Below, one piece after another: positions 5,601-48,495 of a stretch of 64,000 nucleotides of DNA. Every line of letters begins with the position of its first letter. Positions within the stretch are counted from its first letter, which is position 1. The DNA comes from a virus. Location: the IMG/VR virus record IMGVR_UViG_3300023243_000009, positions 32,001-96,000 of that record. The stretch is one strand, 5' to 3'. Made by a program: the position numbers and the translations under genes. The notes under the pieces were generated by a model. It ran no database searches and was not told the DNA's origin. It saw nothing but the letters and a program-made list of their open reading frames with translations.

Positions 5601-8600
5601 TGGGGTAGTGTATACCAATTCTGGGTATTATTTGTGCTTCCGTATGCACGAGTTTGGATAGAAGCAGTATAATTAGATATACTAGCAGATATATTAAGAT
5701 TATATTTTATATAAATGTCATTTAAACTATCATTGTCTCTTAAAAAATATTCTTCAACACCATCATAAGATACTTCAATAGCTCCATCTTGATATACACC
5801 TTGTTTATTATTGGGGGAAACGGAACTTGACCAATTTACAATCGTGTCTTCAGGAAAAGATGAGGTAAAATTAGCATTTGGAGTAGATGACATTGTAGTT
5901 AAATCACTCCCAGATAATGGAGTCCAACCCGGAATAGCGGGAGATAAAATTCTAGGGGTTCCACCAATTTTTAATCTTGGAAAATGGAAATCTATAGATG
6001 CTGTTCCTGCTATTTTAATTTTGGGGTGACCTCCAATTTGATTAACAGATGAACCAGAATCCCCAGGGATTTGATTATTGTACTCTGATTTGAAAAAAGT
6101 ATTACTTACATCTACAGTTAAGGGTGAGGGTTTAAATACACCACTTTCAACCCCAAAATTAGAAAATGTAAAATTTTGATCCGTTAATGTAGCTCCGGTA
6201 TATTTGGATGATGAGTGGTAAATATTATTTTCGGAAATTATAACCCCCCCAGTTCCTAGAGAGGATGCGCTATATGATATGGATGCAGAAAAAAACCAAG
6301 GAATATTTGAAGTTCTTTTTGGATTATATGAACCAAAATTAAACTTTGATATGTCTGAAGTTATATTATTTTGGGGTGTTAAATCAGATCCGGAGTTAAA
6401 GAAAGATTGGGAATCATTCCCTGGATTATCCCAACTCCAAAAATATTGTTTTTGATAGTTATCACTTCTAATAAAATTACCCTGTTGGAGATTGTCATTG
6501 CCTACACCTATAGAGTCAGAGGTTCTATAATCCCCACTGACATTTAAACTCCAATTTTCTGAACCGGCACTAGTTGATGAAGTTATAGGGTAAAATTCAG
6601 TTACAATATCAGTAGTTAGGTCGGTAGTAGATGTTTTTATGTTATCTCCTTGAGTTTGTGAAATTCTTAATAAAGTACTATTTGCAAATTCAGTTACACC
6701 CTCAATTACATATTCTGCTACATTATTGTTGCTTCTAACAACAGCATCGGGAGTGATCCATTTAATTGAATTAGAATTAATTAAAAAATCTCCAATAGAT
6801 TTATTATTAATATCTTTATTAGATAACTTTATATATTTTACTTTAGCAATAGGAGGAGAAATAGAAATTTGTTCGGAAATGATCCACGCATCCCCGGATT
6901 TTGGGGAATTTTTGTTAAGTAAAATTTCAGTTTCGGTAGTAGTACCTTGAAAATAAGTACCATCTCCACTTGTTAAACTAAAAACAATAGGATTAAAAGA
7001 AATGGAATTATCTGTTACTTTTAAGTAAGGACCACATCCAGGGTTTAGGATTTGATCTGTTACTATTAAACTAGACCCACTAAATTCCCCATTATATAAT
7101 TCTCTTTGATCATGTATTTCTATATTTCCATATCCTACAAATTCTCCACTATTATTAATAGTATTAGATATTGAACCCTCAATAGTTTCACTATAGCTTT
7201 GAGTTAAGTTAAATTGATTATTTAAACCATATGCAGAGGCTGAGGGTGAGGTTTGTAAACCATTATAACGTTCTAAAGATCCCCCAGTTCCACCTGTGAA
7301 TTTATATATCGAAGAACCACCATTAGCTTCATATTGACCCACATCACCGGAACCTGTACTATAGTTTCGGGATTGGGGTTTTATTGAGCCACTATAAGTT
7401 TCATTAGACCAAGATACTTGAGCAGGTCTTTGTTTATTTCTTTCTAAAATATGTTGTTTTACTACTACACCCGAGCTTAAACTTGTACGTGCGGGAGTGA
7501 AATCTTTAATCATCTTAAATAAAGAATTATCAAAGAATTTTATTAATCTAATGAAATCAACAACGTTATAACTGTTAATATATTTTTCAAAATAAGCGTT
7601 TCTTAATGTATCTAAAGCAGGATAACTACGTTCATTCGAAGATATATGTCTAGGGTCTCCAATATAATCACCTATGTTAAAATACCCGAGTTGTGCATTA
7701 ATGTCATCATTAATTTGATCTTGAGGTGAGAATGCTACCTCTAAATAATTTACATCAGGTGTGTAGCTTGAACTTACAAAAGATTCTTGTTGTACTGATT
7801 GGAATGGGGATAATACTTTAATATCTCCATTTGACCCCGATGGAGATTCTGCAATGTCGTTACCTATAAGAGCAATTTTATCTGTTACTCTACTTTTTAT
7901 ACCTGATGGAACTTGGTCTTGGTATGTGTTTTCTATATTAGATACCCATTCAGCATTATTAATATAGAATGAACTATTGCTAGAAAAAGATTGGGTAATT
8001 TGAGATAAAGATCCTGTTACTTTTGGATGTATAGATGTTCTACTTTCTGTATTCAATTCCGTTCCTAAATCTGCTCTAAAAAATAATTCATTAGGGGTAC
8101 TATTAGTTGTAGTACCTTCAATAGAATAGGGGTTTAATACAAAATCATGAAAAGTATTTTGTGGTATAGCAGCATTAAAATATCTTAACTCTTGGAATGA
8201 ACCAGAGAAGGGTTGATATACATTAGAACCCAGAATAACATTTGTATCTTTATTTAAGAAACCTACCGTAGATTGTGAATAATGTGAAGAATCATATCCT
8301 GAAATATAATCTGACATATTAAATCCTACCCTACCATTAATTTCATTGGCTACATATAAAGTAGAGTTTGTGTTGGTATCCCCCATCGTAACTTGTACTG
8401 ACCACCAATCTTGGTTAAAGGCAGGGAAGTATATGCTAGAGGATATTGTAGGGTCGCTCGCATAAGCAGGTATCCATTTTAAAGTACCCCAAGTGTCATA
8501 TTGGTCAATAGATGAACCCGAATATGAACTACTAACTAAGCCTGAGCCTGTGTATTCTAATATTAGATTTCCCCCATCATCTGTTGACCATAACGATTGT

Positions 8601-10582
8601 GAATATCTAATATCGGTACTAGCTACGTTATTAATAGCTGGAGGGATACCTGGGGTTTTGAATCTAAGTTGAATAGTTTGTGGGGTTCCACCTCCGAAAT
8701 TGACATTTGAAAGTAAGGAAGATGATAAAAAGTTGTCTGATGTTTCTCCTGTATTAAATGCGTAGTTAAATACATTTTGTTTTAGATCCCAGTCTTGAGA
8801 CTCATTTCTATCTTTACCCCCAAATTCGTTTACTCTTAAAATAGTATCAGGAATACCATATGAAGTAATTAATGCTCTTAAACCAGCTACTGTACCTTTA
8901 GTTTTAAGTAAATATGGTAAATTATGATAAATACGTTTATAAATGCGTTTGTTTACATCACTTAATGGCACTATATCATTTGAAGCAGAAATTTGAGTAT
9001 CAACGTATTCATACCCAGAAGGAGTAGGTAAACTACTTGTAATTTCAGGGAAGGGAAATAAACTACCTGAAGGAGTTATTCCTAAAAATGCGGAGTATAA
9101 ATCATCATTATTAAAGTTATTAGAATATAGTTTAACTCCAAAATCTTTAATGGCATCAGCTATTAAATCTTTAGATATACCATAATCTAAACGGTTATCA
9201 GCATTAAATTTATTTGTAATGTCTTTAGTATACAACCAAATATTATCATAATGTTGAGCCACCATATCAATAAAAAGTTCATACTTTATATTTTCAGAAT
9301 CTTCTTTTAAATACTCAGGAATGGAATTATATAGTCTATCTGGGTTTTCTTCATCAAATAAAGAAGCGGATAGAGCTAACCCACCATAATTGACATTACT
9401 TTCATCTGCACTACCTAACCAAGTTAAAACTTCTAGGTTTTCTGTTGGATATAAAATAAAGGGAGGGGTAGAGTTAGATTTTGGGTAGGAATAACTTGAA
9501 CCACTATTAAAATACATAAAATATTCAAAACCATCAAAGTTCTGGATTAGTGTGTCTATGTTTGAATTTAATAGACCAACACTTGAAATATAAGATACAG
9601 AAGAAGTTGTAGCACTTGTTATATTTGAAGATATAGTATTTAATTGGTTACTATAATTTTCAATTAGTCCTACTTTATAATAGAAATTTTCTAATCTAGT
9701 TAATACTGATGAGAAATGAGTGAAATCATTGAAATCTTCATAATTAACGTTTATGTTAATTTCCTTAGTATTTAGTAAATTTTTAATTTGGTTAACTGAA
9801 CTAGTTACGTTTGAGTTTAATAATTCACTATATGAAAAAAGTTGACTAGAGTTCCCAGTTTCTTGTTTTACGTTTAAATTGAAATTAGGACCTGCTATAA
9901 ATTCAAAATCATCTTCAATAGTAGGAGTAAAGGGGAAATCAACTTGATATGCCTGGGGTGTAGATAATATTTCAACAACCCATAATTGTGATTTTAAATC
10001 AAATTCCTCAGGTAAGGGTTCGTATAATTTTATTAGAACCGTAGGGTCTTCAGTATTATTATTATCTAAGGATATATTATTAGCTATTACAATTTTATTA
10101 TCTCCAAAATTAAGATAAAAATCAGCAAAATAGGGAGTATTATCTCTATACCCTATAAATTCATTAGTAGAAGATACAATAGAAGTATTAGTAATAGTAT
10201 TACTATCTAACCTAATTTCAGTTCTATCAGAGGAAACTTCAGATATAAAATATGTTTCATTTATGTTAGAACTTAATCTTTTTCTATAAAAATTATAAAC
10301 GATAGAATAAATACCTATATCATATCCTAAATTTTCAAGATCTAATTGAGGGTTTAATAATACATCTCCTTGTTTAACATTAAAAGATGTTAAAGGGATA
10401 GTACTTGAAGGGTATATTTTAGTTTGATTTTCATCATATATATAAAACTCTATATAATCCGTTGATGATGAAAATTCTGTGTCTAAATCAGACACGGCTA
10501 TTAACTCGACATCAGAAGTTTTATAATCTTGAACTTCAAATGTAGTTGGGTCTAATTGTAATATTGTAATTTCCTCGTTCAT
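2606..10582 (-). CDS. Very large (2658 aa) virion/baseplate protein
   Basis: Uninterrupted ORF, Ser/Thr/Asn-rich, inside the baseplate module. Confidence 0.65.
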   Translation of the reverse strand: MNEEITILQLDPTTFEVQDYKTSDVELIAVSDLDTEFSSSTDYIEFYIYDENQTKIYPSSTIPLTSFNVKQGDVLLNPQLDLENLGYDIGIYSIVYNFYRKRLSSNINETYFISEVSSDRTEIRLDSNTITNTSIVSSTNEFIGYRDNTPYFADFYLNFGDNKIVIANNISLDNNNTEDPTVLIKLYEPLPEEFDLKSQLWVVEILSTPQAYQVDFPFTPTIEDDFEFIAGPNFNLNVKQETGNSSQLFSYSELLNSNVTSSVNQIKNLLNTKEININVNYEDFNDFTHFSSVLTRLENFYYKVGLIENYSNQLNTISSNITSATTSSVSYISSVGLLNSNIDTLIQNFDGFEYFMYFNSGSSYSYPKSNSTPPFILYPTENLEVLTWLGSADESNVNYGGLALSASLFDEENPDRLYNSIPEYLKEDSENIKYELFIDMVAQHYDNIWLYTKDITNKFNADNRLDYGISKDLIADAIKDFGVKLYSNNFNNDDLYSAFLGITPSGSLFPFPEITSSLPTPSGYEYVDTQISASNDIVPLSDVNKRIYKRIYHNLPYLLKTKGTVAGLRALITSYGIPDTILRVNEFGGKDRNESQDWDLKQNVFNYAFNTGETSDNFLSSSLLSNVNFGGGTPQTIQLRFKTPGIPPAINNVASTDIRYSQSLWSTDDGGNLILEYTGSGLVSSSYSGSSIDQYDTWGTLKWIPAYASDPTISSSIYFPAFNQDWWSVQVTMGDTNTNSTLYVANEINGRVGFNMSDYISGYDSSHYSQSTVGFLNKDTNVILGSNVYQPFSGSFQELRYFNAAIPQNTFHDFVLNPYSIEGTTTNSTPNELFFRADLGTELNTESRTSIHPKVTGSLSQITQSFSSNSSFYINNAEWVSNIENTYQDQVPSGIKSRVTDKIALIGNDIAESPSGSNGDIKVLSPFQSVQQESFVSSSYTPDVNYLEVAFSPQDQINDDINAQLGYFNIGDYIGDPRHISSNERSYPALDTLRNAYFEKYINSYNVVDFIRLIKFFDNSLFKMIKDFTPARTSLSSGVVVKQHILERNKQRPAQVSWSNETYSGSIKPQSRNYSTGSGDVGQYEANGGSSIYKFTGGTGGSLERYNGLQTSPSASAYGLNNQFNLTQSYSETIEGSISNTINNSGEFVGYGNIEIHDQRELYNGEFSGSSLIVTDQILNPGCGPYLKVTDNSISFNPIVFSLTSGDGTYFQGTTTETEILLNKNSPKSGDAWIISEQISISPPIAKVKYIKLSNKDINNKSIGDFLINSNSIKWITPDAVVRSNNNVAEYVIEGVTEFANSTLLRISQTQGDNIKTSTTDLTTDIVTEFYPITSSTSAGSENWSLNVSGDYRTSDSIGVGNDNLQQGNFIRSDNYQKQYFWSWDNPGNDSQSFFNSGSDLTPQNNITSDISKFNFGSYNPKRTSNIPWFFSASISYSASSLGTGGVIISENNIYHSSSKYTGATLTDQNFTFSNFGVESGVFKPSPLTVDVSNTFFKSEYNNQIPGDSGSSVNQIGGHPKIKIAGTASIDFHFPRLKIGGTPRILSPAIPGWTPLSGSDLTTMSSTPNANFTSSFPEDTIVNWSSSVSPNNKQGVYQDGAIEVSYDGVEEYFLRDNDSLNDIYIKYNLNISASISNYTASIQTRAYGSTNNTQNWYTLPQIYQSNANKQIVISNGEIPEPPTFSGITYNHMAFRIVLKSPEPSFEYRISTFNGSVYARFSGNNSYLSIPNTFNSTTFQGTPSNPQRFTSSFSSPGGRHPEIKIQAHLKKINSTGTVSTIASSDTPILEPIFGGKEFIFPDSPTINIVDINSIDDMYFIEYSMSNYDYNSDTNNESFNVAFLETGDLESKILITQALTSSEDGAYNLTGSLLIEKGNYDNPTQMGDVILSQQFIVPNSSSSGNVTLTGSFEFPFEYDDVFRMAVEVIKPTFNSGLAITSYTMSISPSSSIYAPLSSPPTNNIYKIPTSSGFIIPSYFGEGILPFNLALDCQPTLNNYNDIRDNSFIMDVSYNNISGSISPVNFDQILNNTADKAQTPDSNYTSTRSIRPRYNGTKTTGNQYNIWSIKDVDTYGKNPVIELKDAYFGYFKNIKDLYPLVNDKISLELTYLLDQQSNAVPPSLEGYGVNILEKTFPISNPISIGFISSSQYAQELDDSYPIYKLASKPTPILYSQTSSAGYALEIPLTGSGRISMYDNNDINTIVDYSFTAQGTSSYDNNNIIYTSKTSNYTQIINPTEEVVIDPFNAGSNYIDPYTTVNGSIIFGDNGSESVDKNPQRISMQTSFATSFLNESGGVELAFDVQMVSGSTPVEFNLEDISLIVHRTGKEPFNAGSIIGSGINNLIRFVSPISTTFTRKRNLYKTDTINAYNPQRGSYYALIENVPLNSFLTQKGVYTQGKGGAFFKGDINGLEFVIKANSGEFLFKTNDSIHFKVKIEIQKPKKEKFGPNILYPADYEGLKFPSKLSTIGERTSLLAGDNKGTSPFWVYPNSTDKNILIMSSSNINEAYGGKFYQGPLKYVPGPSEYFDSGVEPSGTQFPKITSPIEFFPGDEIRFGNNENYTYIIKSVVPPENNIVDGIGKIKIVLDSEVPESINKDFFLIRRFTPKASSFILDTQFPYSAESSGSEANGIIYPTFPTDYIKNSGSSIVTDLIDKGVIK

Positions 10583-28982: not shown

Positions 28983-29213
28983 TTATAATAATAAATGTTT
29001 ATTTTCCAAATACATCCAAAATCTTTCAAGCCATAGGTTGATTTTTACTCCTTCTACTTCATCTTCTCCTAACATGCCATTGAGTTTTCTGCTAGCAGTA
29101 TATGCTATACCCATATCGATGCAGTCTCGAGCTTTATCCTTATCACCTAATTTAAAAAAATGTTTTGCTTGGGACAAACAGTGATGTAATATTTGTTTTT
29201 CTATTTTTGCCAT
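28983..29213 (-). CDS. Hypothetical protein
   Basis: ORF track. Confidence 0.6.
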   Translation of the reverse strand: MAKIEKQILHHCLSQAKHFFKLGDKDKARDCIDMGIAYTASRKLNGMLGEDEVEGVKINLWLERFWMYLENKHLLL

Positions 29214-29343
29214 AATTTTATTTTGTCTGTATTTATTTGAACTAAGTTATTATTCATTTTTACTAAAATATTACCGTTGAAATGAATGCCAAAGCATTTC
29301 TTTTTAATTCCCTCGAAGTTAACCCAATCTCCTTTCTTTACCA

Positions 29344-29751
29344 TTACAATTTATATTTTTGCTTGTAAACGTTGATTAAAGAATTCCCAACTCCTAATTC
29401 TAACACTTCAGCTGTATCCGGTATCCCTACTAACTTTAGGGAGGTTATGATATAGTCTATATTTTCATTAAAAATTTTCATTTTTATTTTAGAGTTAACA
29501 CGATTGGAATTTTTATATACTAAAACTACTACTTGGTTATTGTATGGTTTCTTTTTTTCAACCAATACCTTAGGATGTTTGTACCCCTTAGGTGGTGTAT
29601 ATTCTGTTTTATATGGACCATTAGGTACTTTATGTTTATTATAATACCATTTTGATACTCCCCCTATTTCAGGTTTTGAAGGAACTTCACACATAATCTG
29701 GGTGTACTTTATTAATGGTGATTTCTCTTCTATTGGTCTGCCTTTATTCAT
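29344..29751 (-). CDS. Hypothetical protein
   Basis: Starts at the repeated leader. Confidence 0.7.
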   Translation of the reverse strand: MNKGRPIEEKSPLIKYTQIMCEVPSKPEIGGVSKWYYNKHKVPNGPYKTEYTPPKGYKHPKVLVEKKKPYNNQVVVLVYKNSNRVNSKIKMKIFNENIDYIITSLKLVGIPDTAEVLELGVGNSLINVYKQKYKL

Positions 29752-29814
29752 AACCTTTATTGTTTTAATTAATTATTATACTTGAATATATGAAAAGTAA
29801 ATGTGGTAGCCCAA
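29749..29814 (-). promoter_or_regulatory. Repeated promoter+leader module, copy 9
   Basis: Same motif ending at the ATG of 29344-29751. Confidence 0.8.
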
Positions 29815-29861
29815 TTTGTTAGCGGATGTATTGTTTTTTAAGGTTGTGTGGGGTACCCATC

Positions 29862-29873
29862 GTTGTAAAAAAT
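29862..29873 (+). repeat. Lone GTT core (attI-like or secondary insertion site) at the array's left end
   Basis: GTTGTAAAAAAT without a left arm; complements the left core of the next site at 10/12. Confidence 0.55.
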
Positions 29874-30191
29874 TTAAATATTAAGTTCTTGATAGCTTAC
29901 CTTTTTCCCAAGCAATTTAACCTCTATAAACCAGTCAACATTATTACTTTTTAAAAATTTATTCCATTCTTTTTCTTTTTGCTTATAAACCGCTTTTGTT
30001 AAGTGTTTATGCCAATTTTCAAAATTCATTATATTAAACCGGTGTTCATTAATAACTATATTTTTACTATTTGCCTCACTTAACAAAAACTTCATATACA
30101 AGTCTTTTATATTAGCTTTATCGCATTCCCAAACATTGCTAACTTCTACCATATCCCATTGTTTATCGTGTATTTGTGTAATGTATATCAT
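29874..30191 (-). CDS. Cassette 1 hypothetical protein
   Basis: ORF track; stop abuts the GTT core box. Confidence 0.7.
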   Translation of the reverse strand: MIYITQIHDKQWDMVEVSNVWECDKANIKDLYMKFLLSEANSKNIVINEHRFNIMNFENWHKHLTKAVYKQKEKEWNKFLKSNNVDWFIEVKLLGKKVSYQELNI

Positions 30192-30198
30192 AATTTAA

Positions 30199-30341
30199 AC
30201 TTTTAACAACAACGTACAAAGAAAATAAACTACTATTCGCTTTCCGTTGTTCATTGTTTATTTGTGGGTTGTCGGTATTTCCGACATACCTCTATTTTTT
30301 TTAATCGTTTACTTTACTTGTACAAATCCGTTGGCAGTAAT
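30199..30341 (+). repeat. attC-like site 1
   Basis: ACTTTTAACAAC-AAC-GTACAA-AGAAAATAAAC ... GTTTACTTTAC-TTGTAC-AAATCC-GTTGGCAGTAAT. Confidence 0.8.
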
Positions 30342-30346
30342 AACTA

Positions 30347-30580
30347 CTAAGAGTACCATTTACCAATTTTCTCAAATTCTTCTACTACATCTTTACAATC
30401 TAATTGTTCTAATAAATCACAAAGCAATCCGTCAGCTATACAATGGCTTTTTGCATAATCCCTCTGTCCTTGTCTTTCTTTTAGTTCACTAATTACTGCT
30501 TTTTTAAAATCTAATTGTTTTTTGGTAAGTGCCATTTTATTAATATTTGTTTTTAATTTATCCGTTACTACTGCCAACAT
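30347..30580 (-). CDS. Cassette 2 hypothetical protein (start in the attC arm, or at the internal Met MALTKK)
   Basis: ORF track; MLAVV is encoded by the arm of site 2. Confidence 0.65.
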   Translation of the reverse strand: MLAVVTDKLKTNINKMALTKKQLDFKKAVISELKERQGQRDYAKSHCIADGLLCDLLEQLDCKDVVEEFEKIGKWYS

Positions 30581-30779
30581 CTTTTAAAGAAAAAAACTAA
30601 TTTATCCTTTTTAATAAACCAATTCTAACAAGTGGGTTATTGTTTTGGCTTTCAACTAATCTTTTACGATAATCTTGTAAACTTTCGTTTTTCTTTGGCA
30701 CTTTTATTAATTTTCCCATTTTTTACTTATTGTTTTAATTTATTCGTTTCTTTCCTTAAAAGGGTACGTTGTATTTAAT
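30567..30779 (+). repeat. attC-like site 2 (ORF in loop)
   Basis: ACTACTGCCAAC-ATC-TTTTAA ... TTAAAA-GGGTAC-GTTGTATTTAAT. Confidence 0.8.
30597..30719 (-). CDS. 40-aa ORF nested in the loop of site 2
   Basis: Hand-translated MGKLIKVPKKNESLQDYRKRLVESQNNNPLVRIGLLKRIN; A-rich leader. Confidence 0.5.
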   Translation of the reverse strand: MGKLIKVPKKNESLQDYRKRLVESQNNNPLVRIGLLKRIN

Positions 30780-30780
30780 G

Positions 30781-31038
30781 CTAATCTTTAGGCACATTAG
30801 CACAAACAGTTCCTTCTTCTTGGTGTGTTTGGTTAACAAGTGGATTGCCTCTTACGCTTAAATTAAATGGCTCAACATAACCTTCTTTAGCAAAATACCA
30901 TTTACCTTCATACTTAAATTCAAAACCGCTATCACGCATACAGATAGCCATTTCTTCACCATCACTTGTCTTTAATACAACAGATTTAAATACTTCTTCA
31001 AGTTGCATTATGTTTTTTTCGTTTACTGTAATTTTCAT
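30781..31038 (-). CDS. Cassette 3 hypothetical protein
   Basis: ORF track; stop 1 nt from the core box. Confidence 0.7.
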   Translation of the reverse strand: MKITVNEKNIMQLEEVFKSVVLKTSDGEEMAICMRDSGFEFKYEGKWYFAKEGYVEPFNLSVRGNPLVNQTHQEEGTVCANVPKD

Positions 31039-31068
31039 TTCATTTATAATTTATAGTTAATAACCCGC

Positions 31069-31213
31069 ACTAAAATACAACACCGTACAAAATTAATTGC
31101 TTGGTTTTGGTTTACTTGCGAACGTCCTCGCATCCTTTAACTTTATTTTTTATTTATTGGTTTTAGTGTTTTTTTTATCGCAACAAATCTTGTACGCGCA
31201 CGTTGTAACAAAT
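31069..31213 (+). repeat. attC-like site 3
   Basis: ACTAAAATACAAC-ACC-GTACAA-AATTAATTGC ... GCAACAAATC-TTGTAC-GCGCAC-GTTGTAACAAAT. Confidence 0.8.
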
Positions 31214-31257
31214 TATTTTTTATTAGGTTACTTTTCTGTTTGCAAATTATCGTAATT

Positions 31258-31377
31258 TCATTCCTCTTTTTCTTGGTCTGTTTGCAAAAAATCACTTGTA
31301 ACAACAACGTATAAATCATTATTACTGCTTAATGGGTTTCTAGAATAAAATTCATCTTTAAAATCTACTGGTCTCAT
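31258..31377 (-). CDS. Cassette 4 ORF (39 aa) starting inside site 4
   Basis: Hand-translated MRPVDFKDEFYSRNPLSSNNDLYVVVTSDFLQTDQEKEE. Confidence 0.45.
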   Translation of the reverse strand: MRPVDFKDEFYSRNPLSSNNDLYVVVTSDFLQTDQEKEE

Positions 31378-31435
31378 AATTAAGTTTTAGTTTATTTATC
31401 CGTAACAATGTTTATACGCATAAGTTGTAGTGCAT
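31294..31435 (+). repeat. attC-like site 4
   Basis: ACTTGTAACAAC-AAC-GTATAA-ATCATT ... AATGT-TTATAC-GCATAA-GTTGTAGTGCAT. Confidence 0.8.
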
Positions 31436-31440
31436 TAAAA

Positions 31441-31709
31441 CGACACCACAACAACGTGTATAGGTAATTATTGCCCTTGCTTCACTATCTTATAACCAAG
31501 TTCGTGCAAATCTTCAAGCAAACGAATAGTCATAGTTGTTTTAGGTGTTTTCTCAAAAAACTCATAACCTCGCTCTTTTATTATGTGCAGTAATATGTTT
31601 TGCTCTTCAGCATTTGCACCTCCAAATAATTGTTCTATCTCTTTCATAATTTATTTTATTTTAATTAAATCGGGCAAAAACTACCCATACATAAACCGTT
31701 AGCAGTAAT
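31441..31709 (+). repeat. attC-like site 5 (ORF in loop)
   Basis: CGACACCACAAC-AAC-GTGTAT-AGGTAATTATTGCCC ... GGGCAAAAACTACCC-ATACAT-AAACC-GTTAGCAGTAAT. Confidence 0.8.
31468..31647 (-). CDS. 59-aa ORF nested entirely in the loop of site 5
   Basis: Hand-translated MKEIEQLFGGANAEEQNILLHIIKERGYEFFEKTPKTTMTIRLLEDLHELGYKIVKQGQ; A-rich leader. Confidence 0.6.
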   Translation of the reverse strand: MKEIEQLFGGANAEEQNILLHIIKERGYEFFEKTPKTTMTIRLLEDLHELGYKIVKQGQ

Positions 31710-31710
31710 A

Positions 31711-31911
31711 TTAAATATCAATTGATTTAATTAATCCTTCCAGTTTTTCACGTGCGCCATCCCTAATGCTATGATAACCCCCAAGTTTGTTTTTACATAT
31801 ATCCATTGTGTTAATTAATGCATTTATCATTTGTGCTTTATCAGCCATACTAATGCTAACAACGTGTATATCACATTGCTGTTCTGTTTCTAGGTCTTTA
31901 CTTTTATCCAT
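31711..31911 (-). CDS. Cassette 6 hypothetical protein starting inside site 6
   Basis: ORF track; QCDIHVVSIS is encoded by the arm. Confidence 0.7.
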   Translation of the reverse strand: MDKSKDLETEQQCDIHVVSISMADKAQMINALINTMDICKNKLGGYHSIRDGAREKLEGLIKSIDI

Positions 31912-31989
31912 TTTATTTAGTTTATTACTTATTAAAAATTATTGTTTATCTACTCGCAACGCTACATACACAAATACGTTATATGCAAT
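31849..31989 (+). repeat. attC-like site 6
   Basis: ACTAATGCTAAC-AAC-GTGTAT-ATCACATTGC ... GCAACGCTAC-ATACAC-AAATAC-GTTATATGCAAT. Confidence 0.8.
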
Positions 31990-31990
31990 G

Positions 31991-32230
31991 CTAAATGTTT
32001 AATTGCTCTACTCGCCACGTTCGGTTTTTATGGTCTATCCATAGGCTTCTGCAATTTAATTGGTTTATTCTATCGCCGTAAATGTTTGTTACAAATCTAA
32101 AACCTCTCTTTTGTGCTTCTTCAGCGTCAATGCTTATAAATAATTGTCTGTACTTATCACGCACTTCAAATAACAACGTATAAAAAAAATTGCTACTTTC
32201 TCCATTTTTATAATCTAATTCTTTAAACAT
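31991..32230 (-). CDS. Cassette 7 hypothetical protein starting inside site 7
   Basis: ORF track; NFFYTLLFEV is encoded by the arm. Confidence 0.7.
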   Translation of the reverse strand: MFKELDYKNGESSNFFYTLLFEVRDKYRQLFISIDAEEAQKRGFRFVTNIYGDRINQLNCRSLWIDHKNRTWRVEQLNI

Positions 32231-32302
32231 AATTTATGATTTTATTTATTAATTTCACTATAATTAAACGCAACATTTCTTATACAATGCGTTGTAAACC
32301 AT
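32163..32302 (+). repeat. attC-like site 7
   Basis: ACTTCAAATAAC-AAC-GTATAA-AAAAAATTGC ... GCAACATTTC-TTATAC-AATGC-GTTGTAAACCAT. Confidence 0.8.
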
Positions 32303-32303
32303 A

Positions 32304-32471
32304 TTATTGTTTAGTTCCATCCATTAAATTACAAGCCTCGCATTGTCTTTGGCAAGTGCTTTCATAATGTGGGTTCTTGTGGTCATAACAATAAAACGAT
32401 TCAACAACACCGTATATAAAGCATTTTTTCTTTACTTTCTTTTTACTAAACAACCTACTAATCAAACTCAT
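32304..32471 (-). CDS. Cassette 8 Cys-rich 55-aa protein starting inside site 8
   Basis: Hand-translated MSLISRLFSKKKVKKKCFIYGVVESFYCYDHKNPHYESTCQRQCEACNLMDGTKQ. Confidence 0.6.
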   Translation of the reverse strand: MSLISRLFSKKKVKKKCFIYGVVESFYCYDHKNPHYESTCQRQCEACNLMDGTKQ

Positions 32472-32544
32472 TTTTTATCTATTAATTAGTTTTGTTGCTT
32501 AATTCAAGGTCGCAACGTACCTTATACAATTCGTTGGTAGTTAT
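32396..32544 (+). repeat. attC-like site 8
   Basis: ACGATTCAACAAC-ACC-GTATAT ... TTATAC-AATTC-GTTGGTAGTTAT. Confidence 0.75.
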
Positions 32545-32551
32545 TTTTTAT

Positions 32552-32698
32552 TTATAGATAATTAAAGATTATTATTAATAATAAAAAGCCTATTAATAGT
32601 AAAAAAGTAAATTTAATATCAAAAAAACAAATGCCAACATCTTTTATAACAAATTGCTTTTTATTTACTTTTTTACTAAATTGTTTATATTCTATCAT
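32552..32698 (-). CDS. Cassette 9 single-TM 48-aa protein starting inside site 9
   Basis: Hand-translated MIEYKQFSKKVNKKQFVIKDVGICFFDIKFTFLLLIGFLLLIIIFNYL. Confidence 0.55.
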   Translation of the reverse strand: MIEYKQFSKKVNKKQFVIKDVGICFFDIKFTFLLLIGFLLLIIIFNYL

Positions 32699-32766
32699 TT
32701 ATGTTATATTTATTTACTAATTATTAATTTACGCAAAATGCAATAAAAGGGTACGTTGTAAGTAAT
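32627..32766 (+). repeat. attC-like site 9
   Basis: ACAAATGCCAAC-ATC-TTTTAT-AACAAATTGC ... GCAAAATGCA-ATAAAA-GGGTAC-GTTGTAAGTAAT. Confidence 0.8.
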
Positions 32767-32774
32767 ATTATTTA

Positions 32775-33074
32775 CTATCTTTTTGCTGCACTTGTAGAGC
32801 TACTGCTTAACGCGCCTATACCTAATATAAATCCGAAGTCATACCAACCTCCGTTATTATTTACAGCATATATTGCTATATCGCTACTAAACAAACTACC
32901 TATCCATGCAAATGGTGCAATCATTCCGTGCCAAAGTCCTCCCCAAAATCCATAAGGAGCAACTGTGGTACACGCTTCTATATTAGAGACATCGGCACAT
33001 CCCGTAAATAAGACTACAACCAACAACGTGTATAAAAAATACTTACTAATTCTGTTTAAATTTACTTTTTTCAT
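32775..33074 (-). CDS. Cassette 10 lipoprotein-like membrane protein starting inside site 10
   Basis: LFTGC lipobox; GFWGGLWHG...NNNGGWYDFGF motif. Confidence 0.75.
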   Translation of the reverse strand: MKKVNLNRISKYFLYTLLVVVLFTGCADVSNIEACTTVAPYGFWGGLWHGMIAPFAWIGSLFSSDIAIYAVNNNGGWYDFGFILGIGALSSSSTSAAKR

Positions 33075-33154
33075 CTTTACTTATTTTAATTATTAATATT
33101 AAATTCTATTTATTTTTACTCGTACATTTTATACACAAATACGTTGGCAGTCAT
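33013..33154 (+). repeat. attC-like site 10
   Basis: ACTACAACCAAC-AAC-GTGTAT-AAAA ... TTTT-ATACAC-AAATAC-GTTGGCAGTCAT. Confidence 0.8.
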
Positions 33155-33183
33155 TATTGTAAAAAGGCCACATATATTACGGC

Positions 33184-33393
33184 CTATATCGTGTCTAAAT
33201 GATAACTAATTATTCTTTCTTTTATTTCTTTGTCAGACAATTCTTTTATGGATTGACAATTAAATATGTATTTTTTATTATCAAATAAATCAATTAAATT
33301 ATATTCTGCTGAATAAGTATAACTACCGTGATTAACAAAAATTCTAAAATTTTCATTATCATTATTGTGTTTTACTACTAGATTATTTATCAT
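33184..33393 (-). CDS. Cassette 11 hypothetical protein c
   Basis: ORF track. Confidence 0.6.
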   Translation of the reverse strand: MINNLVVKHNNDNENFRIFVNHGSYTYSAEYNLIDLFDNKKYIFNCQSIKELSDKEIKERIISYHLDTI

Positions 33394-33450
33394 TTTTTTT
33401 TAATATATACTTATTTAAAATAGCTTTTAATTTTAATTTTTTTATTCATT

Positions 33451-33672
33451 TTATTTACCGCAATGCATTTCACAAAGACCATGTTTATTTTCAAATATAA
33501 CTCCTTTATTTGTTTTATTACAATCGTGTTCCACTATACAAGCAAACATATTAGTAGCTTCATTAGAAGCTCCTTGGTTTATCTTATTCCAAGGATGTTT
33601 AAATAACTCAATTTGGTTTTTACAATTACAACAGCATTCACCACTATGCCATCCTTTATCACATTTTATCAT
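33451..33672 (-). CDS. Cassette 11 Cys-rich protein b
   Basis: GECCCNCKNQ...HGLCEMH motifs. Confidence 0.65.
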   Translation of the reverse strand: MIKCDKGWHSGECCCNCKNQIELFKHPWNKINQGASNEATNMFACIVEHDCNKTNKGVIFENKHGLCEMHCGK

Positions 33673-33800
33673 TAGTTCTGGTTTTGTTTTTTATCAAAAA
33701 TATTTAGCATATCTATTAAGTAGTAGATGGTCATAATTAAAAAATACACCCAAAATATAGGGTTGGTTAAAATAAAAAACTTATCTCCGTTTGTGTTCAT
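33672..33800 (-). CDS. Cassette 11 small TM protein a (42 aa)
   Basis: Hand-translated MNTNGDKFFILTNPIFWVYFLIMTIYYLIDMLNIFDKKQNQN; TAATG overlap. Confidence 0.5.
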   Translation of the reverse strand: MNTNGDKFFILTNPIFWVYFLIMTIYYLIDMLNIFDKKQNQN

Positions 33801-33849
33801 ATATTATGTATTTTAATTTTAAATAAAATTAATGGGGTTTTATAAAATA

Positions 33850-33981
33850 ACTGCAACCAACAGCGTGTATAATTTATTAACAAATTTACTAAATTAACAT
33901 CAATCTACCAAATCTATTTTTATAGTGTACTTTTATTAATCACATAGTTAACAAACTATACACGCATAAGTTATATGCAAT
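33850..33981 (+). repeat. attC-like site 11
   Basis: ACTGCAACCAAC-AGC-GTGTAT-AATTTATTAAC ... GTTAACAAACT-ATACAC-GCATAA-GTTATATGCAAT. Confidence 0.8.
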
Positions 33982-34169
33982 TAATCGGTGGTCTGTGTTA
34001 TTTTAACACCTCCTTGTATGCTGCCAAACGCACACCCTGCAAATAATAACCAATTCCATCCATATTCAAATGTTCCGTTTATAAAATCAACAATATGTAA
34101 TGCTAATCCTATTCCGCATACAAGAAGTAGCGTCATTCCCCAAATAAAAGTTCTTGTTTCTTTAGTCAT
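33981..34169 (-). CDS. Cassette 12 two-TM membrane protein
   Basis: ORF track; stop overlaps the core box. Confidence 0.65.
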   Translation of the reverse strand: MTKETRTFIWGMTLLLVCGIGLALHIVDFINGTFEYGWNWLLFAGCAFGSIQGGVKITQTTD

Positions 34170-34224
34170 TTTTATAAGTTTTATTTATTAATTAATATTT
34201 GTTTCTATTTATACGCTACTAGGC

Positions 34225-34247
34225 ATACACAATGCTTTGTAAAAAAT
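34225..34247 (+). repeat. Degenerate attC-like right arm (GTT mutated to TTT)
   Basis: ATACAC-AATGC-TTTGTAAAAAAT; left arm not confidently located. Confidence 0.55.
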
Positions 34248-34390
34248 TAAACCTTACTTACTGTTTTTTTAATAAAGTAATCGTATTGTCCTTTTAATTC
34301 TATTAATTCTTTAGAGGCTTGTCTTCTGCAAGCTTTCCTATAAGCTGGGTTTTCTTGCTCCCACCATTTAAATCCTGTAAATCCTTTCAT
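34247..34390 (-). CDS. Cassette 13 hypothetical protein (47 aa)
   Basis: Hand-translated MKGFTGFKWWEQENPAYRKACRRQASKELIELKGQYDYFIKKTVSKV; stop overlaps the core box. Confidence 0.55.
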   Translation of the reverse strand: MKGFTGFKWWEQENPAYRKACRRQASKELIELKGQYDYFIKKTVSKV

Positions 34391-34397
34391 CTGTTTA

Positions 34398-34548
34398 AAA
34401 TTTCACAACAACGCACAAAGAAAATAAACTACTTATCGCTTTCCGTTGTTTAGTTATTATTAATTTACGTTCTAATAAGTATAATCTAAATTTATATTTT
34501 ATTTTATAAATCATCGTTTACGTTTTTTATATATTCCTTAAAAGGTAC
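34398..34548 (+). repeat. Degenerate terminal attC-like site 13
   Basis: Left arm and first part of the loop nearly identical to site 1; right arm broken, no GTT core. Confidence 0.6.
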
Positions 34549-34549
34549 T

Positions 34550-34969
34550 TTAACTACAATATTTAATAAAGTTATCCAGCAACCCTTTTATATTATCTGC
34601 ACCAACGGGGTTTGCGGAGTGTATAAATATCCTGGGTAATTTTTTCTGGTTGTCCATGCAATAATCTACTAACCATTGGGCACAATCCATTCCTGTTTTT
34701 TCCTTGTAACTCTCACCACGCCATTCTTGAAATTTTTTACTTTCATCATAATCTTCCCAAAAATATTCAGGTGTATAATGCTCATCCGCTAAATCGTGGT
34801 CGAAAGAAATAGCATCAGGTAACCCAAATATTCCAATCCATTTTACAAACTGTTCATAATTCAAAACCCAATTTATATTATAATCTCCACCATCCGCATC
34901 TGTTGGTACTTTACCTTCTTCATTTATAAAAGGGTTTCTAATATCGTCTAACCAAAGTAAGTTCTTCAT
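34550..34969 (-). CDS. Cyclic-phosphate-processing receiver-like domain protein
   Basis: LWLDDIRNP, ISFDHDL, TGMDCAQWL and IHSANPVG motifs. Confidence 0.75.
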   Translation of the reverse strand: MKNLLWLDDIRNPFINEEGKVPTDADGGDYNINWVLNYEQFVKWIGIFGLPDAISFDHDLADEHYTPEYFWEDYDESKKFQEWRGESYKEKTGMDCAQWLVDYCMDNQKKLPRIFIHSANPVGADNIKGLLDNFIKYCS

Positions 34970-35003
34970 TTATTCTTTTTTTTATATTTAAATTAATTGT
35001 ATA

Positions 35004-35441
35004 TTATTTTTCAATACTTTTAATGTGGGTACAGCGTCCATCTTTTGCTCTAATAGCTCCAAAGCAGTTACAACTATATTTAATTGAACCATCTAATTGA
35101 GTTGATTCCTTAGTTAGATATTCTTTATCCCCTTTAGATGAAATAAATCTATGGGTTATTACTTCAATTTTAAATTTTGCTTTTGGTTTAGGTTTATCCC
35201 ATATGATATCCTTTAAGTTGGTTTTTGGGTGAACTTCAACCCAACCTGGCATTAAATAATGCTTGCCACCTATGTTGGTTAACATTGGAGGATTGAAACC
35301 ATTAATATGTTTATATGTAAATCTTTTGACATAATGTACCGGACCAAATCCATCACTTACACTTAAACTTCCTTCAGAGTGTACTATACGAGTTCTAAAA
35401 TTTCTATGCTTATTTAGAGTACTAATTTCCCAAAGTGCCAT
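35004..35441 (-). CDS. SWIM zinc-finger protein
   Basis: C-terminal YSCNC...CTHIK. Confidence 0.7.
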   Translation of the reverse strand: MALWEISTLNKHRNFRTRIVHSEGSLSVSDGFGPVHYVKRFTYKHINGFNPPMLTNIGGKHYLMPGWVEVHPKTNLKDIIWDKPKPKAKFKIEVITHRFISSKGDKEYLTKESTQLDGSIKYSCNCFGAIRAKDGRCTHIKSIEK

Positions 35442-35557
35442 TATTTGTAATCTTGAAGTTGAATTTCTGAATATTTAATTGCCTGAGCCTCAGTGAGACC
35501 TAGGTTCATTCCAATTCCAAACCAGTATTCTAAAATTTCTTGTTGATTTAATAACAT
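35441..35557 (-). CDS. Small hypothetical protein (38 aa)
   Basis: Starts at the repeated leader; TAATG overlap. Confidence 0.55.
   Translation of the reverse strand: MLLNQQEILEYWFGIGMNLGLTEAQAIKYSEIQLQDYK

Positions 35558-46872: not shown

Positions 46873-48495
<1,623 letters not shown>

Follow-up and report, generated by a model that had tools for sequence, protein, structure and literature searches.

Palindromic sites and antisense small genes in a large flavobacterial phage suggest a recombinase-less, integron-like cassette array

The region at 30.2-34.5 kb of the window, that is, of positions 32,001-96,000 (64,000 nucleotides) of record IMGVR_UViG_3300023243_000009, is probably a cassette array that lacks a recombinase and belongs to an integron-like system of phages of Flavobacteriia and other Bacteroidota (our rough probability is 0.6). 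The record is an 85%-complete genome of 138.7 kb from a large lytic-type phage whose host group is marine or salt-lake Flavobacteria. Sequence comparisons suggest that the system differs from integrons in its enzyme and in the reading direction of its genes, which is opposite. It is neither a canonical IntI/attC integron nor a strict one-sided cassette system, because the arm inside the ORFs is a joint too, at which N-terminal modules have been exchanged within two protein families. Our literature search found no paper describing an integron-like phage system with an Xer-like recombinase.

The array sits in a hyperplastic region with the structural module on one side and the replication module on the other, and it comprises at least 11 hairpin sites within 4.3 kb (Table 1). 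From 30.2 to 34.5 kb all genes are minus-strand, so the ORF map bears out the claim of an earlier note on this DNA that every cassette ORF is antisense. The same note placed most stops 0-8 nt from a GTT...AT box; we found a GTT-N7-AT box -1 to 8 nt from the stop in nine ORFs, with ends at 29874, 30347, 30781, 31711, 31991, 32304, 32552, 32775 and 33981. The small accessory genes are separated by imperfect palindromes with AAC and GTT triplets at the base. The mapped hairpins have a left arm of the pattern xxAAC(AAC)G-TGTATA and a right arm of the pattern TATACA-N5/6-CGTTG-N6-AT. Both triplets are conserved in the outer (R) boxes, as in integrons, and the extended integron consensus RYYYAAC/GTTRRRY is retained only as GTTR. 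Matches to the left-arm motif exceed chance in the window (16 versus 7.1 expected); ten of the 16 are on the plus strand at 30208-33871, and within the 138.7-kb genome the motif clusters solely at the array. A search of the hairpins against Rfam, which lacks the attC covariance models of IntegronFinder and HattCI, matched no family, and a promoter and terminator scan with a sigma-70 model, unsuited to Bacteroidota, found no enriched consensus.

Table 1 Features of the array (positions in the window)
Feature	Position	Strand	Remarks
Lone GTT box GTTGTAAAAAAT	29862-29873	+	Left array end, recombinase-proximal by polarity; abuts stop of ORF 29874-30191
Short hairpin a, AACAACG..CTTTCCGTTGTT	30208-30250	-	Near-identical to hairpin n
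Box b GTTGGCAGTAATAAC	30330-30344	+	14/15 positions complementary to 30564-30578, across the 77-aa gene
77-aa ORF	30347-30580	-	MLAVV start in arm of unit d; likely true ATG 30535 (MALTKK)
Unit d (site 2), CAAC...GTACGTTG	30575-30771	-	Whole hairpin; encloses 40-aa ORF 30597-30719
85-aa cassette ORF	30781-31038	-	Stop 1 nt from box d
Hairpin e (site 3)	31075-31213	-	Loop 92 nt; 29-aa ORF 31044-31133 starts in loop
Hairpin f (site 4)	31297-31435	-	ATG 31377 in loop; ORF 31258-31377 through left arm (DLYVVV)
Hairpin g (site 5)	31444-31709	-	219-nt loop contains whole 59-aa gene 31468-31647
Hairpin h (site 6)	31852-31989	-	ATG 31911 in loop; ORF 31711-31911 through arm (QCDIHVVSIS)
Hairpin i (site 7)	32166-32302	-	ATG 32230 in loop; ORF 31991-32230 through arm (NFFYTLLF)
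Hairpin j (site 8)	32400-32544	-	ATG 32471 in loop; Cys-rich 55-aa ORF 32304-32471 through arm (FIYGVV)
Hairpin k (site 9)	32624-32766	-	ATG 32698 in loop; ORF 32552-32698 through arm (IKDVG)
Hairpin l (site 10)	33016-33154	-	ATG 33074 in loop; lipoprotein ORF 32775-33074 (FLYTLLVVV)
Hairpin m (site 11)	33853-33981	-	Entirely upstream of ATG 33800
Short hairpin n	34407-34450	-	Twin of hairpin a
cREC_REC gene	34550-34969	-	Highly mobile cassette; stop codon inside end box GTAGTTAA

Loops are of uniform length (83-98 nt) except in hairpins d (163 nt) and g (219 nt), each of which has a complete small gene inside. Where the ATG stands relative to the hairpin differs among sites: within the loop, past the hairpin, or inside it together with the entire gene. 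At seven hairpins (e, f and h-l, corresponding to sites 3, 4 and 6-10 of the earlier note) an A-rich leader and the ATG lie within the loop, the ATG 12-20 codons ahead of the left arm, and the ORF continues through that arm. This arrangement, previously noticed at sites 4 and 6-10, thus extends to site 3. The long form of the hairpin measures approximately 125-140 nt, its loop containing leader, ATG and the first 12-20 codons, and its distal arm of approximately 25-30 nt is overprinted by coding sequence in each gene's own frame.

All six arm-encoded peptides reported previously (DLYVVVTS, QCDIHVVSIS, NFFYTLLFEV, FIYGVVES, IKDVGIC and FLYTLLVVV) are present in the translations. The arm motif is read in all three frames, two in the window and the third in L083, which argues that it is a nucleotide-level element. 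A 28-nt arm is identical in hairpin h of the window and in L082, with different loops and bodies; in the family of hairpin h the conserved core begins right after the arm, at SMADKAQ. The ORFs that pass through the arm are probably real coding sequence, because the signal-peptide h-region and lipobox (LFTGC) of the lipoprotein ORF 32775-33074, whose h-region contains the arm, require the upstream start, and because the start and frame of ORF 31991-32230 are identical in Nekkels_1 and three IMG/VR contigs. The ORF at hairpin k, whose arms are similar to those of unit d, encodes a small membrane protein. On the other hand, the MLAVV start proposed at site 2 is probably not real, since its ATG falls in the terminal arm of the autonomous unit 30575-30771, and it is the internal, likelier ATG that follows an A-rich leader.

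Approximately 11 independent mosaic joints were identified in related metagenome contigs, with homology switching exactly at the (C)GTT of the plus-strand right arm; in three cases the module on the left matches one partner and that on the right another, and the switch is confined to 3-5 nt. In an all-versus-all comparison of L087-L093 and the window, homology started at GTTGGCATCACA, GTTGTAAACAAT, GTTATGTGTAAT and CGTTGTACACAA and ended with CCGTT, ACGTTT, ACGTT, CCGTTG and CAGTTA; the hairpin core always kept the variable spacer, and the right-hand module always kept the N7 box. A CGTT was at most 3 nt away from 22% of breakpoints, compared with 5% of random positions. These joints, together with agreeing loose ends of reads from four salt-lake runs (30333, 30771, 31432, 32293 and 33972), place the crossover between G and TT (between AA and C on the folded strand), as in integrons. 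The exchange point is thus probably the right-arm (C)GTT, which corresponds to AAC, cut before its C, in the 5' arm of the well-folding sense strand.

The end boxes suggest the same polarity. When the 11 boxes of the window are compared, seven of its ten cassettes have their best complement in the box on the far side of the gene; in 13 arrays with 64 boxes in total, the right-hand complement is the better one 31 times and the left-hand one 13 times, and matches of at least 7/8 number nine to the right and none to the left. The right-arm joints and the complementary end boxes agree with the earlier choice of plus as the recombination top strand, for which the shared arms of cassettes 2 and 9 had also been cited; those arms are real but alone insufficient to fix polarity. 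Furthermore, the minus (sense) strand folds far better and is more stable at every site of the window and at approximately 18 of 19 sites from many phages, and also in recombinase-adjacent arrays. As folding energies favour minus, minus as the folded strand fits a plus top strand. The earlier note had counted a reactive minus-strand hairpin against its own polarity, which was mis-specified, given that with plus as top strand the minus strand is the folded, reactive one by integron rules.

A cassette, written on the plus strand, runs from TT and a variable box through the antisense gene body to a complementary box ending in AAC, followed by an inner arm, the loop, the second inner arm, a 5-7 nt spacer and G; the hairpin therefore stands at the 5' end of its own gene. 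In the cassette 31991-32230 (cassette i), common to Nekkels_1 and L021-L023, hairpin core, loop, start and body move as one between unrelated neighbours, the downstream box N7+AAC is shared, and homology breaks after it. This cassette and the right-arm joints favour the previous proposal that the hairpin belongs to the cassette on its left, so that start and body travel together, but the proposal stands only in part, as the in-ORF arm is also a joint.

This left arm is a second joint, less well resolved than the right one, and joints were seen there for unit d, hairpins a and m, and N-terminal swaps in two families. One conserved gene body is combined with eight unrelated N-terminal modules in family h, and with four in family i; at the in-ORF arm, 5' modules (leader, start and N-terminal peptide) are exchanged against gene bodies, many of which have their own ATG directly after the GTT box. 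Unit d is an autonomous module of 197 bp, 98-99.5% identical in eight copies with mixed flanks (at least five different left and at least five right flanks, and two copies in one contig). Hairpins a and m are likewise shared as AAC-to-GTT units, and the unit 33859-33972 of hairpin m recurs in different surroundings within the same lake. Left-arm joints of these kinds are not predicted by a single-crossover integron mechanism, and the conserved arms of 25-30 nt together with a RecA/UvsX-like gene could permit homologous exchange at left arms.

Neither a tyrosine or serine recombinase gene nor a Y1-HUH gene was found in this 85%-complete record, which also gave no PF00589 match; such genes were likewise absent from the 99%-complete Nekkels_1 and from a relative that is 95% complete. 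A RecA/UvsX-like gene is present in this phage. Danklef_1 and five IMG/VR phages (L097, L098, L100, L101 and L103) carry an Xer-like recombinase of 265-271 aa, with three to six same-strand hairpins of the family in the 4 kb upstream of it and none downstream. Of the 12 long hairpins in these relatives, 10 have the ATG in the loop, and the terminal junction reads stop, box-AAC, TATATAT, an attI-like site. In these relatives the array lies directly upstream of the recombinase gene, with integron-like site polarity and genes pointing toward it. Since the recombinase has the orientation of intI with respect to the array although the cassette genes are read toward it, the genes are truly inverted relative to classical cassettes, as had been proposed. 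Against the integron-integrase model TIGR02249 the enzyme scores 156 bits in two stretches (cut-off 265); its best match is XerA-type (197 bits, cut-off 220), below every NCBIfam cut-off, and the IntI-specific insertion (extra domain) is absent. Taken as a whole, the interpretation of the earlier note is largely upheld as to polarity, and not as to a one-sided cassette or a canonical attC site; its MLAVV start is doubtful.

We propose that a small Xer-like tyrosine recombinase would perform structure-specific strand exchange on the folded sense strand; in the relatives its gene would stand directly downstream of the array, behind the AAC-TATATAT site. For this phage the enzyme would be supplied in trans by a co-infecting phage or the host, because the record holds none.

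That the palindromes are instead PeSL-like regulatory hairpins, kept for transcription or mRNA processing and shuffled as a by-product of UvsX/RecA-type homologous recombination, as proposed for T4-type phages, is unlikely, although several observations fit. The array occupies a hyperplastic small-gene region between structural and replication modules, a RecA/UvsX-like gene is present in the phage and a site-specific recombinase is not, the hairpins start immediately after stop codons, and a strong G.U-type sense-strand bias is compatible with an RNA role. Conserved arms of 25-30 nt are long enough to anneal, N-terminal swaps at the in-ORF arm are compatible, and circle integration within the palindromic core would likewise yield complementary end boxes. 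However, all 11 right-arm joints that could be resolved switch in the 3-5 nt (C)GTT and not in the much longer conserved inner arm, the ATG is placed inconsistently relative to the hairpin, and in relatives the same hairpins are stacked beside the Xer-like recombinase; the missing Rfam match and, weakly given the sigma-70 model, the lack of an enriched promoter or terminator consensus point the same way. More improbable still are autonomous palindromic elements (MITE-like or ultra-small phage elements) transposing into intergenic sites, with the genes merely between them. Unit d, with its terminal inverted repeats and near-identical copies in varied flanks, and the common units of hairpins a and m would suit such elements, but gene-body modules are mobile too, with joints at the same triplets, neither target-site duplications (none seen at the unit d copies) nor a transposase gene were found, and end-box complementarity across genes would be left unexplained.

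Canonical attC sites in classical orientation, with the sense strand on top, an attC after each ORF, crossover at the in-ORF GTT and a host IntI, are very improbable. The sense-strand 5' arm holds the extra unpaired bases, so an attC finder would pick that top strand (cf. P12002L_attC1, PMC9892861), R'' would directly follow the stop codon as in classical cassettes, and N-terminal modules are exchanged at the in-ORF arm. Nevertheless, the downstream hairpin parts from the upstream gene, homology ending at AAC in six cREC contexts, in cassette i and at 11 joints; the start and body of most ORFs would be split, with arm frames differing between genes; and the well-folding strand is the sense strand, not plus. 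There is also no IntI, the relatives' enzyme lying at 156 bits versus the 265-bit integron-integrase cut-off, and P12002L_attC1 did not recombine with IntI1 (PMC9892861).

Several features are shared with integrons and CALINs: single-gene cassettes between imperfect palindromes ending AAC...GTT, crossover at the GTT/AAC triplet, an outer-box variable part that belongs to the neighbouring cassette and hence complementary cassette ends, one strand that folds better than the other, and, in relatives, a tyrosine recombinase gene facing the array across an attI-like site. Like a CALIN, this array has no recombinase of its own. Unlike in integrons, the relatives' enzyme is Xer-like and without the IntI insertion, the genes run antisense to the polarity of the sites and point to the recombinase rather than away from attI/intI, the second arm is also a joint, and loops reach 220 nt and can contain whole genes. 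Moreover, the site is at the gene's 5' end and may include the start codon and 12-20 codons, whereas a classical ORF ends before attC. Modules bounded by Xer-type sites of alternating orientation and found in many contexts also occur as the pdif modules of Acinetobacter plasmids; the pdif sites, however, are 28-bp double-stranded sites used by host XerC/D, whereas those described here are folded palindromes of 60-140 nt in phage genomes. Polaribacter phage P12002L is among the virulent phages for which CALINs have been reported; in it, a hairpin of the same geometry as the compact sites here (attC1; AAC, 6 nt, stem-loop, 3 nt, GTT) was called by HattCI and failed to recombine with IntI1 (PMC9892861). 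On the crossover arm the unpaired spacer measures 5-7 nt, versus 0-3 nt on the other, unlike attC, in which extrahelical bases lie near L'' on the uncleaved arm (PMC5027507); this difference counts as counter-evidence, as does the failure of P12002L_attC1 with IntI1. As with the PeSLs of T4-type phages, the small ORFs of hyperplastic regions in large lytic phages have short conserved stem-loops on their flanks, which mark the borders of insertions, deletions and swaps between related phages, there with no dedicated recombinase identified (PMC2839356, PMC4122927). PeSLs are intergenic and consist of an early promoter and a terminator (PMC2839356, PMC4122927), whereas the hairpins here enclose start codons, are partly coding and yielded no promoter or terminator consensus in the sigma-70 scan; the joints sit at a single triplet, and a dedicated recombinase is encoded by relatives. 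Work on synthetic attC sites placed in coding sequence demonstrates that a hairpin recombined in a structure-specific way can at the same time encode protein (PMC7439510); the overprinting there was engineered, whereas here it is natural, N-terminal and in three frames.

Tentatively, and with less than even odds in our judgement, the hairpin may have a dual use, as a structure-specific recombination site and as an expression head (leader, start codon and N-terminal peptide), allowing both whole-gene shuffling and swaps of 5' heads against bodies. If so, each swap at the in-ORF arm would create new in-frame N-termini, and the body would stay expressible after any swap, because many bodies keep their own ATG right after the GTT box. 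This would be a natural, recombinase-driven exchange of N-terminal domains and leaders in lytic phages.

The source record, of which bases 32001-96000 form the window, is a 138.7-kb IMG/VR virus genome, estimated to be 85% complete, whose nearest cultured relatives, by single genes, are Cellulophaga phages. Genes in the window include those for baseplate proteins, a DNA polymerase, a clamp loader, GroEL (a full-length chaperonin of this type) and glycosyltransferases, and many salt-lake metagenome runs contain window DNA. The array belongs to a run of small genes on the minus strand, 4.5 kb long, that is flanked by the structural and the replication module. Antisense to these genes, a GC-rich stem-loop (TGTCGGTATTTCCGACA) followed by a T run looks like a terminator for opposite-strand transcription.

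Positions of features in the window and in related phage and metagenome contigs (L-numbers)
Feature	Record	Positions	Strand	Remark
2658-aa ORF	window	2606-10582
Stem-loop with T run	window	30267-30305	plus
Unit d	window	30575-30771		197 bp, encloses 40-aa ORF
Box h	window	31978-31989
Cassette i ORF	window	31991-32230	minus
Cassette j ORF	window	32304-32471	minus
Lipoprotein ORF	window	32775-33074	minus
Box m	window	33970-33981
cREC gene	window	34550-34969
GroEL-type chaperonin	window	46873-48495
Lipoprotein family member	L002	2959-3306
Unit d, two copies	L087	1050-1246, 2253-2380		2.4-kb metagenome contig
Joint	L090	2537-2540
Joint	L093	10880-10882
Joint	L092	4465-4469
Recombinase fragment	L086	1347-2496		Polaribacter phage Danklef_1

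Eleven long sites and two short hairpins were mapped. Two motifs, AACAACGTRTATA in the left arm and ACGTTG..AGTAAT in the right arm, are over-represented and concentrated at 30.2-33.9 kb of the plus strand; a whole-genome scan found no second cluster of the left-arm motif. The earlier note had described minus-strand ORFs that stop beside a GTT box, start within a hairpin loop and cross its arm, and this anatomy was confirmed. Nine ORFs have their stop codon -1 to 8 nt away from a GTT-N7-AT box. Seven hairpins (e, f, h, i, j, k and l) hold the ATG, preceded by an A-rich leader, in their loop (87-98 nt); from there 12-20 codons lead up to the left arm, and the ORF continues through it. Every arm-encoded peptide quoted in that note was found, and its proposed MLAVV start at site d was judged doubtful. 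The loops of d and g enclose an entire small gene, and at m the ATG lies downstream of the whole hairpin. Boxes h and m share one sequence (GTTATATGCAAT) despite having unrelated genes on their right.

Alignment of eight long sites gave a sense-strand 5' arm of AT-N7-AAC-G-N4/5-TGTATAAG-N-AATGTTGCG and a 3' arm of GCAAT-N-TTTTTATACA-CGTTGTTG, and the coding overprint therefore amounts to approximately 8-10 codons. In the window, two different reading frames run through the arm motif, and in a related contig (L083) the third does; what is constrained is thus the nucleotide sequence rather than the peptide. At least two upstream starts are genuine: that of the lipoprotein, whose signal peptide and lipobox require it, and that of the ORF of cassette i, whose start and frame are kept in four other phages. 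The lipoprotein occurs widely in large phages, its family having 52 loci in IMG/VR; L002 and L024 also carry members. Its signal-peptide codons bear a faint likeness to the arm in phi17:2, a greater one in L024 and a full one in the window; judging from these sequences, the arm seems to have arisen by point changes inside pre-existing coding sequence.

The cREC gene (cREC_REC, cyclic-phosphate processing receiver) is all that seven otherwise unrelated phage contigs have in common, with a nucleotide identity of 72-97%. Its stop codon falls within its own end box, GTAGTTAAC, and homology stops at that AAC in six contexts. Two of the contigs (L011 and L012) have a box upstream of the gene, GTTAACTAC, which is the reverse complement of the end box; the copy in L013 has no upstream hairpin. 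Cassette i is present in the Cellulophaga phage Nekkels_1 and three IMG/VR contigs. Compared with contig L021, its homology begins just past the AAC of the upstream arm, spans the inner arm, leader, ATG and ORF, and stops at N7+AAC beyond the stop codon, while both neighbouring genes are unrelated. Its in-ORF and after-stop boxes co-vary (GTTA/TAAC versus GTTG/CAAC).

Further, a 31-mer from the 40-aa gene of unit d, whose protein (MGKLIKVPKK...) has no family match, retrieved seven metagenome contigs. The eight copies of the unit are 98-99.5% identical, have at least five different left and at least five different right flanks in mixed combinations, and one contig (L087) carries the unit twice. 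Given that a 197-bp unit is found at 99% identity in at least five salt-lake contexts, exchange is recent and frequent. All-versus-all comparison of these seven contigs and the window revealed approximately 11 independent joints, at which homology begins or stops precisely on the (C)GTT of the right arm, in plus orientation. In L090, L093 and L092, left and right modules occur with different partners and the switch takes place within 3-5 nt. At all resolvable joints, the variable spacer accompanies the hairpin core, and the right-hand module keeps the N7 box. A CGTT lies at most 3 nt away at 22% of breakpoints; for random positions the share is 5%. In four runs, loose ends coincide with joint triplets; the run data behind them are contigs, whose uncovered parts carry no weight. 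Module order differs between the window and L092.

For seven of ten window cassettes, the best complement of the left-arm box among all 11 right-arm boxes is the box across the cassette's own gene, and summed matches of the window boxes were 59 for across-gene versus 39 for within-site pairing. A wider set of 64 boxes was drawn from 13 arrays, and the best complement of each was sought up to 600 nt away on either side; the right one beat the left 31 to 13, and matches of at least 7 of 8 numbered nine on the right versus none on the left. Complementary end boxes are the pattern expected of circular cassettes entering a palindromic site at a fixed point. End boxes alone do not give polarity, because both flank the gene symmetrically.

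When whole sites were folded as DNA, the minus (sense) strand was more stable in every case. Owing to G.T/G.U pairs, it also had the better arm-only duplex energy at approximately 18 of 19 sites from many phages, with a margin of 3-15 kcal/mol, and it likewise folds better in recombinase-adjacent arrays. In integrons, the folded and reactive strand is the bottom one, with AAC in the cleaved 5' arm (PMC5027507). As minus folds here, plus is the top strand by this rule, in agreement with the polarity in the earlier note. That note had, mistakenly, set a reactive minus-strand hairpin against its own polarity; minus is the expected folded strand when plus is the top.

No tyrosine recombinase, serine recombinase or Y1 transposase was found in the phage record, which carries a RecA/UvsX-like gene, and no tyrosine recombinase was found in a 95%-complete relative or the 99%-complete Nekkels_1. 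Danklef_1 has the same hairpins, with a Xer-like recombinase fragment right after the last cassette; a search of the phage record for a homolog of it found none. In Danklef_1, only a 43-aa recombinase piece is annotated (as 'integrase'), the open frame covers the C-terminal catalytic half only, an in-frame TGA lies within the HMM match and an HNH endonuclease gene follows directly. The Danklef_1 gene may be broken or interrupted. Its homologs in IMG/VR are ORFs of 265-271 aa. The recombinase scored below every curated cut-off, with a XerA-type model as best match (197 bits versus 220), and reached 156 versus a cut-off of 265 on the integron-integrase model, in two stretches.

In five independent phages, three to six strong hairpins of the family lie at most 4 kb upstream of the recombinase on the same strand and none lies downstream. 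The cassette ORFs of these arrays point to the recombinase, with the ATG in the loop, 17-22 codons ahead of the 3' arm, in 10 of 12 long hairpins (109-128 nt); short hairpins (57-88 nt) precede the ATG. The array ends in the order stop, box-AAC, TATATAT(G), recombinase start. The recombinase faces the array as intI does, the crossover arm is distal, again as in integrons, but the genes are reversed. This arrangement lends independent support to the central inference of the earlier note.

The proposal that start and body move together held for cassette i, whose shared segment includes both, but is too simple for families h and i, in which N-termini are swapped. In family h, the conserved core starts with arm-coded V-S-G-S, after which comes an invariant Met (MADKAQ...). 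Eight unrelated N-terminal extensions, 20-55 residues long, occur ahead of this core, each open to an upstream ATG. In family i, the body and the arm-coded NxFYTLLF are conserved and the first approximately 13 residues occur in four unrelated versions; the protein closest in body (P0020, approximately 93%) differs at its N-terminus. In related arrays, numerous gene bodies start GTT-ATG, and many right-hand boxes in the L100, L103 and L098 arrays read GTT-ATG-TGT. With such a box, the gene-body module brings an in-frame ATG directly after the crossover triplet. The swaps, the in-ORF ATGs, unit d and hairpins a and m indicate that the in-ORF arm is a joint too, so start and body need not move as one. 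This second joint may be made by the same enzyme on the opposite strand or by homologous exchange in the 25-30-nt arm.

Among the cassette proteins, the sole match in Pfam, PHROGs and NCBIfam was cREC_REC. Protein j had no homologs except itself, the h-family alignment gave 0 confirmed loci among viral sequences, and the cREC protein found one short MAG contig and no host chromosome array among genome contigs. A site-pattern scan of IMG/VR gave 10 matches, approximately half by chance. Those in L076 and L079 adjoin tRNA-like sequence (GGTTCGA.TCC) and are probably chance, not sites; those in L077 and L078 (within an ORF) and L080 were set aside as chance. A generic AAC...GTT hairpin search of the whole genome was far too unspecific and was dropped.

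Integrons are regarded as bacterial and IntI-based, with promoterless cassettes transcribed from one promoter. The phage arrays follow the same logic of stacking and exchange but differ in enzyme family, site geometry and gene polarity, and their recombination site belongs to the coding sequence. The compact sites here have the exact geometry of P12002L_attC1, a phage CALIN site. CALINs are known from virulent phages, and P12002L_attC1 was the one site that IntI1 failed to recombine (PMC9892861). The paper on Nekkels and Danklef is silent on hairpins, cassettes and integrons, and our literature search found no description of such a phage cassette system.

The chief rival is a regulatory hairpin like the PeSLs of T4-type phages, combined with homologous exchange; PeSLs are the closest phage analogue of the modular shuffling. 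An Rfam search of 29000-35500 at E<=1 returned no family, and scans for sigma-70 promoters and intrinsic terminators showed no enrichment. We favour, with a probability of roughly 0.6, an integron-like phage cassette system in which the array has no recombinase of its own, gene polarity is inverted and the hairpins both code for protein and carry the start codons. The interpretation in the earlier note is supported in part: its polarity and gene inversion are kept, and strict co-travel of start and body is given up. Lytic-type phages of a major marine bacterial group would thus stack and swap small accessory genes by integron logic, a concrete mechanism behind hyperplastic regions in large phages. 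The sites also provide a testable natural case of a structured DNA site overprinted by protein-coding sequence in any frame, and, as exchange in the salt-lake population is recent and frequent, cassette mobility is directly measurable.
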